Below are positions 29,056 through 32,016 of a DNA stretch of 64,000 nt, piece after piece (positions within the stretch are counted from its first letter, which is position 1; each line of letters starts with the position of its first letter). The position numbers and the translations under genes are program-made. The notes beneath the pieces are model-generated. The model searched no databases, was not told the origin of the DNA, and saw nothing but the letters and a program-made list of their open reading frames with translations. Source of the stretch: an uncultured Candidatus Saccharibacteria bacterium (GTDB lineage Bacteria > Patescibacteriota > Minisyncoccia > Phycocordibacterales > XYD1-FULL-46-19); contig CAZXCI010000001.1 of NCBI GenBank assembly GCA_964639285.1, positions 219,757-283,756 of the forward strand, read 5' to 3'.

Positions 29056-32016
29056 TTATACCACAAAGTTTACCAATTTATCCTTAATATATATGGCTTT
29101 TTTATACTTCCCTCTTTCGAGCCATTTACTAACAGTTTCGTCGTTTAGAGCTTGTTTGATAATATTTTCCTCGATCTGGTTAGCCGGGAGATTGAGAGTT
29201 GCTCGGGTTCGGCCATTGATCTGAACAATAATCTTTACTTCAGAGACGACTAATTTCTTTGGATCAGCCGTCGGCCAAGCAGAGAGATGGATAGACTTTT
29301 TCTCACCTAAGTTCTGCCACAATTCTTCGGCCAAGTGAGGGGCAAAAGGGGCCAAGATTTGCAAGAATAATTTGAATTCATTTTTATTTATTACCTCACT
29401 CTTCTCATATTCGTTGACCAAAATCATCATCTGAGAAATAGCTGTGTTGAAGGACATGGCTTCAATATCATCTGTTACTTTTTTAATCGCTTGGTGGGTT
29501 AGTTTTTCTATTCTCTGAGTTTCGAGCGTTGAACGGTTGCTTGATTTTACTTTTTTACTCACTCGCCAAATTTTCTCTAAGAAACGATAAGAACCAATAA
29601 TACTCGCCGTATCCCAACTAATCGCTTGGTCAAAAGGCCCCATAAACATTTCGTAGAGCCTTAGAGTATCGGCTCCATAACTTTCAATAACCATATCCGG
29701 GTTAACAACATTACCTCTCGATTTAGACATTTTTATTCCTCCTTCGCCCAAGATCATACCGTGCGAAGTTCTCTTCTGGTAAGGTTCAATAGTTGGGACA
29801 ACCCCAAGATCATAGAGAAACTTATGCCAGAAACGTGAGTAGAGAAGGTGAAGAGTCGTATGCTCCATTCCTCCATTATACCAATCTACGGGCGTCCAAT
29901 ATTTAGCTTTCTTAGGGTCAAGGGGGTTGGTTTTATTTTGAGGATCAATGTAACGAAGATAATACCAAGAAGAGCCTGCCCAGTTGGGCATGGTATCGGT
30001 CTCGCGCTTGGCTGGGCCATTGCAGACAGGGCATTTTGTCTTTACCCAATCAGAAATAGCCGACAGAGGAGATTCGCCCGTTTTTGTTGGCTTATATTTC
30101 TCAACATGGGGAAGAACTACCGGTAAATCTTTCTCGGGTACCGCTTGCCAACCACATTTATCGCAATGAATCATCGGGATAGGTTCACCCCAATAATGTT
30201 GCCGCGAGAAAATCCAATCACGCAATTTGTATCGTGAGACCTGCCGCCCTCGAACAAATTTTGTCATCGCCTTTTTTGCCTGTTCGTTATTGAGGCCAGT
30301 CCATCGTCCGGAGTTCACCATTTTCCCTGACCCTGCGTAGGCCTCTCCGGCGTGATCAATAAGGGTAGGAAGGTCATTAATAATGACCGGAATAATCGGC
30401 AAATGAAATTTCTTAGCAAACTGATGATCCCTCTCGTCATGAGCGGGGACAGCCATAATGGCTCCTGTTCCATAGTCTGGTAAAACGTAATCGGCAATAA
30501 AAATAGGAATTTCTTCGTTATTGACCGGGTTAATGGCTGTGATCCCTTCTAACTTTACCCCTGTTTTTTCTTTAGTTTCTGCCGTACGTTCAATCTCGCT
30601 TCGACGTCTAGCCTCGGCGATATATTTTTTAACTTCTTTGAAGTTTATGATTTTACTTTTCCACTCAGCAACCAATTTGTGCTCTGGAGCTAAGACTAAA
30701 TATGTTGCTCCGAACAACGTATCAGCCCTAGTGGTGAAAACTTTCACCTGATCTAAACAATGATCAAGAACCAATGGCTCAACTGTCCCGCAAAAATGAG
30801 GCTTTTCCGCTTTAACTCGATACGATTCGCCACCAAGATTTTTCTGAATAATGTCTGACTCCCCTTCAGCGATTACTCCGTCGTTATCATCCTCAAGAAT
30901 AACAATTTTGCCTACATTTTTTTTGATTTTTTCTAAATCAAACTTCCAATCTATAAGATATTTAGCTGCTAAGCGTTCCTTGCCTCGAAATTTTGGCTCA
31001 ATTAGCCCTCCGACAATGACTAACTTTTTAATGGGCTTTTTAAGTCTTTCCAAAATGCGATAAGAAACAACCGAGCCGAGCGAATGACTGACAATTGTCG
31101 TATTTTCATCAAAGTTTACTTTGGAGAGAACTGTTTCCGCTTGTTCAATAACGTCAGGGACAAAAGGATGGGGCAAGTCAAAAGTGATAACTTCGTGGCC
31201 CCTTTCTTCTAACTCACGCCTGAGCCAAGGGATGAAGCAACTCTTGCTCGTGCTTCTCCACCCATGAAGGATGACGTATTTCTCCTTGGCTTTAAGGGGA
31301 AAAGAAATCTCCGCTCCTTCACTTCGGCCAATCCAATTACGCTGTTGGATCTTTATTTTTTCTAAATAATCAACAGTCTCAAGATCATCATAAAGTCGAT
31401 CAGCATATTTAGTAATTGCCAACATCCATTGATCTTTCTCTTTTTTCTCTGCTTCCGTTCCACAGCGTTCACATTTACCGTCCACCACCTCTTCGTTGGC
31501 TAGACCAGTCTTGCAAGAAGGACACCAATTGATTGTCGCCTGACTCTTATAAGCCAAACCTTTTTTGAAGAGCTGGAGGAAGATCCATTGTGTCCATTTA
31601 TAATACTTGGGGTCAGTCGTATCAATTTCTCGATCCCAATCAAAAGAGAAACCAATTGATTTGAGTTGCCGACGGAAATTGCCAATATTTTTCTTAGTAG
31701 TGATTGCTGGGTGAATGCCGGTCTTAATGGCGTAATTTTCTGACGGTAAGCCAAAAGCGTCCCAGCCGATGGGGTACAAAACATTATATCCTTGCATTCG
31801 CCTCTTGCGCGAAATAATGTCCATCGCCGTATTGCTTCTTACATGACCAACATGGAGACCTTCACCTGAAGGATAGGGGAATTCAATGAGAGAGTAAAAT
31901 TTGGGTTTCTTAGAGAAATCTTGGGCCTTATAGATGCCCTCTTTCTCCCAAACTTTTTGCCATTTAGGTTCAATCTTTTTCGGATCGTAGGGTCCCTCTT
32001 TAGAATCATTTTTCAT
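29056..32016 (-). CDS. leuS: Leucyl-tRNA synthetase carrying a serine-hydrolase domain of about 180 aa inserted in-frame
   Basis: HVGH and KMSKS motifs, [11 protein letters not shown] and [21 protein letters not shown] CP1 markers; the insert between them has HGW...SHSLGS...H motifs. Confidence 0.9.
   Translation of the reverse strand: [986 protein letters not shown]

Follow-up and report, generated by a model that had tools for sequence, protein, structure and literature searches.

Aminoacyl-tRNA synthetases (aaRSs) of bacteria are regarded as architecturally conservative, and catalytic add-ons to these enzymes are known mainly from eukaryotes. The editing domain CP1 of leucyl-tRNA synthetase (LeuRS) works by non-covalent, substrate-assisted hydrolysis, as opposed to the Ser-His-Asp nucleophile that is predicted for the module described here. 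This module, a complete YdeN/RBBP9-type serine hydrolase domain by sequence and modeled fold, is nested in frame at the entrance to CP1 in the LeuRS encoded by a stretch of 64,000 nucleotides (hereafter, the window) from an uncultured Candidatus Saccharibacteria bacterium (assembly GCA_964639285.1, contig CAZXCI010000001.1, positions 219,757 to 283,756).

Among the relatives of the nested domain, human RBBP9 is a serine aminopeptidase that removes N-terminal, preferably aromatic, residues and needs a free alpha-amine, and the plant protein AHLP, cited in the same work, is an aminopeptidase with the same need (PMC8866121). Full-text literature searches returned no paper describing either a hydrolase or a NUDIX domain inside LeuRS, and in a 2026 survey of domain insertions LeuRS appears solely on account of CP1. 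Neither the hydrolase family nor LeuRS is new, and the combined architecture is already in public databases, but only under automatic names; the JGI pipeline, for instance, labels some of these proteins 'leucyl-tRNA synthetase/predicted alpha/beta hydrolase family esterase'.

A serine hydrolase domain nested in LeuRS

The leuS open reading frame (ORF) of the window is uninterrupted (Table 1), and by its signature motifs the product is a genuine LeuRS from a Patescibacteria bacterium (candidate phyla radiation, CPR; Paceibacterota/Vogelbacteria-like), with synthetic and editing motifs all kept. It scored 1007.9 bits against the NCBIfam model TIGR00396 (leuS_bact; cut-off, 548.4 bits), in a match that is split and resumes at residue 421 (profile position 237). 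The KMSKS motif lies at residues 762 to 766, and a second CP1 motif block of the GTG...AHDxRD type, holding the conserved Asp, spans residues 516 to 530. Residues T428, T429, D432, T433, D527, R529 and D530 of CP1 were invariant across 61 LeuRS sequences, and the TTRxDT pattern was present in 117 of the 120 best LeuRS matches to the whole protein. An AlphaFold2 (AF2) model of the full-length protein (pLDDT 88, pTM 0.79) matched solved LeuRS structures in Foldseek with template-modeling (TM) scores (TMt) of 0.80 to 0.84; none of the solved structures superposed on the model has a domain at the position of the insert.

In an alignment to Thermus thermophilus LeuRS (PDB 1H3N), residues 10 to 246 correspond to Thermus 4 to 241 and residues 424 to 769 to Thermus 243 to 591, which leaves ~177 residues in place of a single Thermus residue. 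The insertion point is the turn of the Thermus hairpin FPVEGKEV-R-IPVFTTRPDT. Thus, the insert replaces the tip of the beta-hairpin that enters CP1, four residues upstream of TTRADT. In the full-length model the two hairpin halves (strands 231 to 241 and 423 to 428) bracket the module, whose last helix ends ~8 residues ahead of T428-T429. The junctions read KEK/YVIL and CLDQ/VKVF, and GC content is continuous through the insert. Elsewhere in the same alignment, around KMSKS (residues ~762 to 770; window region 29056 to 29733), the match jumps from Thermus residue 591 to 637; the segment without a counterpart in the window LeuRS (Thermus ~592 to 636) we take to be the leucine-specific domain.

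The inserted segment has all the sequence and model characteristics of a complete YdeN/RBBP9-type alpha/beta hydrolase, with the full predicted catalytic set kept, and represents a distinct LeuRS-associated subfamily. The Pfam family PF06821 (Ser_hydrolase; gathering threshold, 22 bits) was matched by the insert alone with 28.3 bits and by the whole protein with 24.0 bits. Within the PDB, the insert matched Bacillus subtilis YdeN (1UXO; phmmer E = 1.6e-10) and human RBBP9 (E ~4e-4). The AF2 model of the isolated insert, computed from an alignment with 62 homologues, reached a pLDDT of 94.9 and a pTM of 0.92, and the secondary structure of the module in the full-length model is the same. Foldseek aligned the insert model to YdeN over its full length (TMq 0.88, TMt 0.86, root mean square deviation 2.1 Å) and to RBBP9 with a TM score of 0.84, while larger alpha/beta hydrolases were well separated (TMt at most 0.63). 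The fold is therefore that of a compact, ~180-residue alpha/beta hydrolase without a lid domain.

The family alignment A2 (63 members) has invariant H9, P40, H69, S70, D137 and H165 in insert numbering, and G10 is kept in at least 90% of members. These positions include a Ser-Asp-His triad (S312, D379 and the base H407), an elbow of the G/S-H-S-x-G type and an HG motif (H251-G252) which, from the standard alpha/beta-hydrolase layout, would form the oxyanion hole. The predicted acid, D379, sits in the loop directly after the strand formed by residues 368 to 376. The domain keeps this set and is predicted to be active. Membership in known deacylase or trans-editing families (YbaK/ProX, AlaX, DTD, Pth) was not found, as only alpha/beta-hydrolase families matched by sequence and structure. 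This lowers the chance that the module is one of those enzymes, not the chance that it could act as a deacylase.

Table 1. Features of the leuS locus, in window coordinates
Feature	Position	Strand	Evidence
leuS, complete bacterial leucyl-tRNA synthetase	29056..32016	-	986 aa plus stop; TIGR00396, full-length AF2 model
LeuRS N-terminal catalytic part, residues 1-246	31279..32016	-	aligns with Thermus LeuRS 4-241; HVGH at 55-58, hairpin strand 231-241
Nested YdeN/RBBP9-type serine hydrolase domain (predicted), residues 247-423	30748..31278	-	PF06821, AF2, Foldseek; absent from Thermus LeuRS
H251-G252, HG motif after strand beta-1	31261..31266	-	H in 51/51 and G in 51/51 nested LeuRS modules
Nucleophile elbow SHSLGS, residues 310-315	31072..31089	-	aligns with YdeN AHSLGC elbow and RBBP9 Ser75 in GHSSG elbow
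S312, predicted nucleophile	31081-31083	-	50/51 nested modules; invariant in A2
D379, predicted catalytic acid, in EDDND	30880..30882	-	invariant D137 in A2; D in 47/51, E in 4/51 nested modules
H407, predicted catalytic histidine (PHFCG)	30796..30798	-	invariant in family alignments A1 and A2; 51/51 nested modules
CP1 editing domain, ~residues 424-595	30232..30747	-	PF13603 E=3e-61; opens with hairpin strand 423-428
TTRADT, T-rich editing motif, residues 428-433	30718-30735	-	within CP1
Promoter-like site TTGAAA-16 nt-TAAAGT with TG extension (extended -10 type)	32023..32050	-	consensus scan

Much of this had been proposed in a first-pass annotation made from the sequence alone, which saw a LeuRS with HVGH, KMSKS and CP1 interrupted in frame by about 180 extra residues at 30745 to 31290 (residues 243 to 424). 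The host, the YdeN/RBBP9-like identity of the domain and the quoted motifs, including PHF and the SHSLGS elbow, all stand, and the boundaries prove accurate to within 1 to 4 residues; alignment with other LeuRS sequences, profile search, structure prediction and related genomes each bear the insert out. The annotation had further drawn the triad from 'GESD...H'. The Asp of this motif is not the acid, as D388 of GESD is not conserved and the predicted acid is D379. It had also allowed that the segment might be a lineage-typical expansion of the CP region lacking a conserved triad; the expansion is indeed lineage typical, but the triad is conserved. For function it had offered editing or deacylation, or else an unrelated moonlighting activity; the conserved link to leuS favors a role related to LeuRS.

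Integrity of the insertion

The same 986-aa protein was called on four contigs, including assemblies of the separate runs SRR8925806 and SRR8925803, and it is also listed from NCBI in the collection, with a longest contig of 376 kb. Likewise, the same insertion occurs in independent metagenome-assembled genomes (MAGs) of Vogelbacteria (L004), Paceibacterota (L005) and Patescibacteria (L006 and L007), with module identities of 70% in L005, 56% in L006 and 47% in L007. As independent assemblies carry the same insertion, misassembly, which the first-pass annotation had named as a possible source of the insert, is ruled out. Apparently split or frameshifted leuS genes in relatives (the 'two ORFs' of L004, L008, and the hydrolase-first LeuRS P0074) were considered and rejected, as they are runs of N in scaffolds.

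The absence of intein motifs, also noted at first pass, holds: the Pfam scan found no Hint or intein family, the insert begins with Y247 and ends with Q423 followed by V424, there is no Cys, Ser or Thr at the junctions, and no terminal His-Asn is present. Neither terminal inverted repeats nor a target-site duplication was found at 30748 or 31278, where only short, probably chance repeats occur. A 16-nt imperfect inverted repeat (30695 to 30710 and 31398 to 31413) falls within a conserved part of the LeuRS coding sequence and could have arisen by chance. No second copy of the module was found in the 64-kb window. The ORF encodes the polypeptide as one chain, and the insert is expected to be kept in the mature protein.

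Distribution of the module

Searched exhaustively with HMMER, 1.84 billion cluster representatives contained 1065 relatives of the insert at E<=1e-3, and LeuRS proteins accounted for ~50 of the best 150. Conversely, the module was present in 107 of the 120 best LeuRS matches to the whole protein, a ranking biased by the presence of the insert in the query. In 100 of these it occupies the CP1-entry hairpin (site 1) and in 7 a second site, located ~28 residues past the YKLRDW motif that follows CP1, after an HCxxCG knuckle. Source names of the LeuRS matches include Paceibacterota, Vogelbacteria, Woesebacteria and Doudnabacteria. To judge from these matches, the module is typical of Patescibacteria LeuRS.

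A metagenome scan gave a similar picture. The module lay inside a long ORF at 35 loci (up to L057), all of them synthetases (31 LeuRS and 4 isoleucyl-tRNA synthetases [IleRS]), and these 35 loci comprise nearly all of the closest matches. The other 45 matches, mostly weaker, were free-standing proteins or short fusions of ~180 to 380 aa, most of them 185 to 215 aa; no leuS was detected downstream of these 45 in the fetched flanks, some of which belong to short contigs. When a profile of 53 modules was run against an indexed protein database, all matches were free-standing proteins, so that this search is uninformative as a census of architectures.

Further hosts of the module are valyl-tRNA synthetase (ValRS), alanyl-tRNA synthetase (AlaRS) and IleRS and, rarely, Der, SecA, adenylate kinase and Kae1/TsaD. 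Fusions to peptidase, methyltransferase, deaminase, riboflavin kinase, Smr and NUDIX domains also occur. The bias toward LeuRS is strong, with dozens of 50%-identity clusters versus one or two for each non-aaRS host. In IleRS proteins of 1218 to 1583 aa (L049, 2840 to 7438; L050, 2239 to 5892; L066, 2792 to 7540) the module lies near the start of CP1, preceded by a NUDIX domain in L049 and by a low-molecular-weight (LMW) phosphotyrosine phosphatase domain in L066. In Kae1/TsaD (P0034; L020, 3001 to 4527), seen on 11 contigs, it occupies residues 186 to 358. Because the neighbors of this gene encode the archaeal ribosomal proteins L7Ae, S28e and L24e, its carrier looks like a DPANN-type archaeon.

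Other domains were observed in the same synthetases. One to three NUDIX domains (PF00293) are present in ~44 of the 120 closest LeuRS, in CP1 or in the N-terminal part (for example, P0312, P0340, L006 at 4251 to 7571, L012 at 4562 to 7435, and L054); the window LeuRS has none, and P0078 is a free two-domain protein made of NUDIX and hydrolase. A DUF559/MTES_1575 (Vsr-like endonuclease) domain directly follows the module in LeuRS P0331, P0361 and P0375, and it is found as a free gene immediately downstream of leuS in L008 (7345 to 7716) and L009 (2440 to 2811). Possibly, this is an element of the homing-endonuclease type that accompanies leuS.

Linkage to leuS and gene fission

Free-standing relatives of the insert are also tied to leuS. 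Each of the four close relatives examined is encoded by a gene that directly precedes a leuS without the insert and shares its strand, at a distance of 48 bp (P0001), 6 bp (P0006), 24 bp (P0008) or 36 bp (P0009); identity is 72% for P0001 and 40 to 43% for the other three. The same two components are thus found nested in the window, in L004 to L007 and in ~100 further LeuRS, and as adjacent genes in L001, L010/11, L012/13 and L014, a fusion/fission (Rosetta-stone) relationship. The adjacency to leuS in the four free relatives therefore points to a functional link of the module with LeuRS.

L001 (5950 to 6650; JGI Ga0172381_10000763) appears to have undergone a recent fission in which the hydrolase was retained. 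Here the hydrolase is a separate gene with a duplicate of the leuS promoter and of its first five codons (alignment score of the duplicated 5' block, 47; shuffle maximum, 31). The core of the L001 LeuRS is 83 to 97% identical to that of the nested-type L005, and CP1 is only 30 to 44% identical and without TTRxDT. Another duplication was observed at L008 (4180 to 4300), where a 39-nt copy of the 5' coding end of leuS (MEAYNHKEIEKKW) and a GC-rich hairpin stand just upstream of the real leuS start. A small element that duplicated its target on insertion may account for this. L008 also has a scaffold gap, a run of N, inside leuS.

Evolutionary behavior of the module

Mean pairwise identity among 51 site-1 LeuRS was 0.44 for the module, 0.58 for CP1 and 0.68 for the core. 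Identities of core and module were only moderately correlated (r = 0.50), to about the degree seen for core and CP1 (0.47). In a neighbor-joining tree (~170 columns, no support values, and so to be read as a hint only), nested and free-standing modules are intermixed. In addition, the 1039-aa LeuRS P0348 carries a different alpha/beta-hydrolase subtype (GHSMGG...GENDPW...GHL; UPF0227 match) at the same hairpin, which suggests independent or recurrent recruitment, or replacement of the module. The fast divergence and the discordance between module and core clusters described below point to recombination, module turnover or recurrent recruitment and not to a single frozen accident.

Proposed function and alternative explanations

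We propose that the nested hydrolase is active and that, in concert with LeuRS, it provides a third site of hydrolysis or catalysis. Its most likely chemistry would be hydrolysis of an aminoacyl bond, since the only characterized relatives, RBBP9 and AHLP, cleave aminoacyl-X bonds and need a free alpha-amine. As substrate we would favor an aminoacyl ester, or else a mischarged or activated species of a related kind that is set free close to the editing site; the role would be accessory proofreading or clearance. As CP1 motifs are intact, the module would supplement editing and not replace it. Indeed, the idea that the insert makes up for the loss of an editing site was rejected, given the invariant T-rich and Asp motifs of CP1 in the relatives; a degenerate CP1 was seen only in the fission variant L001. 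As a second choice, the hydrolase might act on the N-terminal residues of peptides and contribute to local amino acid supply. CPR organisms are generally reported to lack amino acid biosynthesis, and an aminopeptidase that supplies amino acids may matter for that reason. Overall, we consider it somewhat probable that the window encodes a LeuRS with a nested autonomous hydrolase that is coupled to LeuRS and acts on aminoacyl bonds.

Several observations weigh against this proposal. A six-frame hidden Markov model search detected no hydrolase within 3 kb of three syntenic insert-less leuS loci (L015 to L017), and the module is therefore accessory and dispensable at least locally; the notion that every insert-less leuS has an adjacent hydrolase was rejected on the same grounds. 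The module diverges faster than its host (0.44 versus 0.68), and module clusters cut across core clusters. With CP1 motifs intact, it is not obvious why a further deacylase would be needed. The substrate is assigned purely by analogy with characterized relatives, and the position equivalent to Glu108, which binds the amine in RBBP9, lies in a low-confidence loop and is not clearly conserved. Finally, the presence of the module in hosts unrelated to aminoacylation (Kae1/TsaD, Der, SecA and adenylate kinase) and in miscellaneous fusions fits a generic housekeeping enzyme.

The last point leads to the strongest alternative, in which the module is a general housekeeping hydrolase, such as a cytosolic aminopeptidase or esterase, that has nothing to do with leucylation and for which LeuRS is a permissive scaffold, one that ensures that the module is constantly expressed and passed on together with leuS in a streamlined genome. 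Besides the unrelated hosts and fusions, the nesting of other small hydrolases (NUDIX, LMW phosphatase) in the same synthetases, the local absence of the module in some close relatives and its rapid divergence, decoupled from that of the host, all speak for this account. It does not readily explain why LeuRS predominates so strongly among the hosts, why adjacency to leuS was kept after fission and in all four free relatives examined, or why this hairpin has received a hydrolase on more than one occasion (P0348). We therefore regard simple hitch-hiking as a serious but distinctly less probable explanation than a hydrolase coupled to LeuRS.

A selfish or mobile domain cassette, spreading by in-frame insertion into permissive loops of essential genes without benefit to the host in the manner of a non-splicing intein or of Rickettsia palindromic elements, would account for the several hosts and two LeuRS sites, the mixing of nested and free modules in the weakly resolved tree, the discordant module and host clusters, the mosaic LeuRS genes exemplified by L001 and L005, and the DUF559/MTES_1575 domain found next to the module or to leuS. 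However, the hydrolase triad is fully conserved and has no known role in DNA mobility, the boundaries lack terminal repeats and target duplications, the window insert encodes no mobility enzyme and is present as a single copy in 64 kb, and a mean module identity of 44% shows no recent spread. Such a cassette is improbable. More doubtful still is a purely structural or regulatory role, in which catalysis is irrelevant and a bulky appendage on the CP1 hinge hairpin tunes CP1 rotation, tRNA translocation or protein contacts. The location of the module on the beta-strand linker or hairpin into CP1, with a second site ~28 residues after the start of YKLRDW, would suit this role, but the Ser, His, acid and HG positions are nearly invariant across very divergent modules, and a free-standing gene would be pointless for a hinge function. 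A chimeric assembly, at first suggested by apparent split genes in relatives, or an intein removed after translation has next to nothing in its favor, since the identical ORF was recovered from separate sequencing runs, the same junctions recur in many MAGs, the 'splits' of L004 and L008 are runs of N, and intein features are missing.

If the nested hydrolase is coupled to LeuRS, it may be part of something wider. Small hydrolase modules appear to be recurrently recruited into the editing-capable aaRSs of ultra-small CPR bacteria (LeuRS, IleRS, ValRS and AlaRS), and occasionally into other translation proteins including Kae1; the serine hydrolase is the main one, often accompanied by NUDIX or LMW phosphatase domains. 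Together they might make up a hitherto unrecognized set of interchangeable parts for quality control in translation or for the clearance of substrates. In LeuRS the serine hydrolase would form a third catalytic site that applies covalent serine chemistry to aminoacyl esters or adenylate-type species next to CP1. We offer this extension as speculation, and think it unlikely in its entirety.

The nested hydrolase is of interest to specialists in synthetases and in the CPR. A whole serine hydrolase is lodged only a few residues from the editing peptide of LeuRS; the domain is conserved throughout a large radiation, and its genetic link to leuS persists even where it is unfused. Should it act on aminoacyl bonds, it would bring a new proofreading or clearance chemistry to a synthetase and, for the prokaryotic YdeN/RBBP9 family, a first functional lead. 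Should the module prove to be a hitch-hiker instead, it would mean that streamlined episymbiont genomes pack enzymes inside essential genes. Natural variants with the domain fused (the window), split off (L001) and absent (L015 to L017) are ready-made comparisons.

Genomic context of leuS

The promoter-like site upstream of leuS was assigned by its match to the consensus, and the block that contains it is also conserved in L001 and L004. As it ends 6 nt ahead of the leuS ATG, the leuS mRNA probably has no leader, or at most a very short one. Downstream of leuS (22666 to 29007) follow genes for a sigma70_r4/HARE-HTH protein, a 414-aa protein without a Pfam match, YceG, MnmA and a short AlaRS of 634 aa, which has no hydrolase insert. 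The 414-aa protein occupies the position of DUF8128 in relatives, and the order leuS, sigma/HARE-HTH, DUF8128 position and YceG is syntenic with L015 to L017; L001 matches it up to DUF8128.

Comparison with known systems

The closest described structure, YdeN of B. subtilis (PF06821, formerly DUF1234), shares with the window domain the fold, the length of ~180 aa, the HG motif, the Ser-Asp-His order and the elbow (AHSLGC in YdeN, SHSLGS here). However, YdeN is free-standing, whereas the window domain is nested, belongs to a leuS-tied subfamily and is 23% identical to YdeN in the structural alignment. Human RBBP9 (PDB 2QS9 and 7OEX) has the same fold and triad at 20 to 22% identity, but is a eukaryotic, stand-alone protein without a link to an aaRS.

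Among editing systems, the CP1 domain of LeuRS, IleRS and ValRS is another hydrolytic domain that two beta-strands connect to the synthetase around it, and the module sits on the very hairpin that opens it. The two folds are unrelated, and CP1 is universal in LeuRS, whereas the module is lineage restricted and dispensable. Trans-editing factors (AlaXp, YbaK/ProXp and D-aminoacyl-tRNA deacylase) also back a synthetase with an extra hydrolase, and their existence as separate genes with cis-domain homologues resembles the nested and adjacent forms found here. As they have no sequence or fold relation to the module, the likeness is one of concept, and a deacylase role of the module is putative.

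Other composite proteins offer more distant parallels. Inteins, too, place a whole folded domain in frame in a conserved essential protein, but the module has no Hint fold, junction nucleophiles or His-Asn and is expected to stay in the mature protein. IleRS proteins with a GNAT domain (NCBIfam NF040702) are bacterial class I aaRSs with an additional catalytic domain, as is the window LeuRS by prediction. The partner domain is a different one (the window protein scored 79 bits against the NF040702 cut-off of 1999), and the module described here is nested internally, by the editing site.

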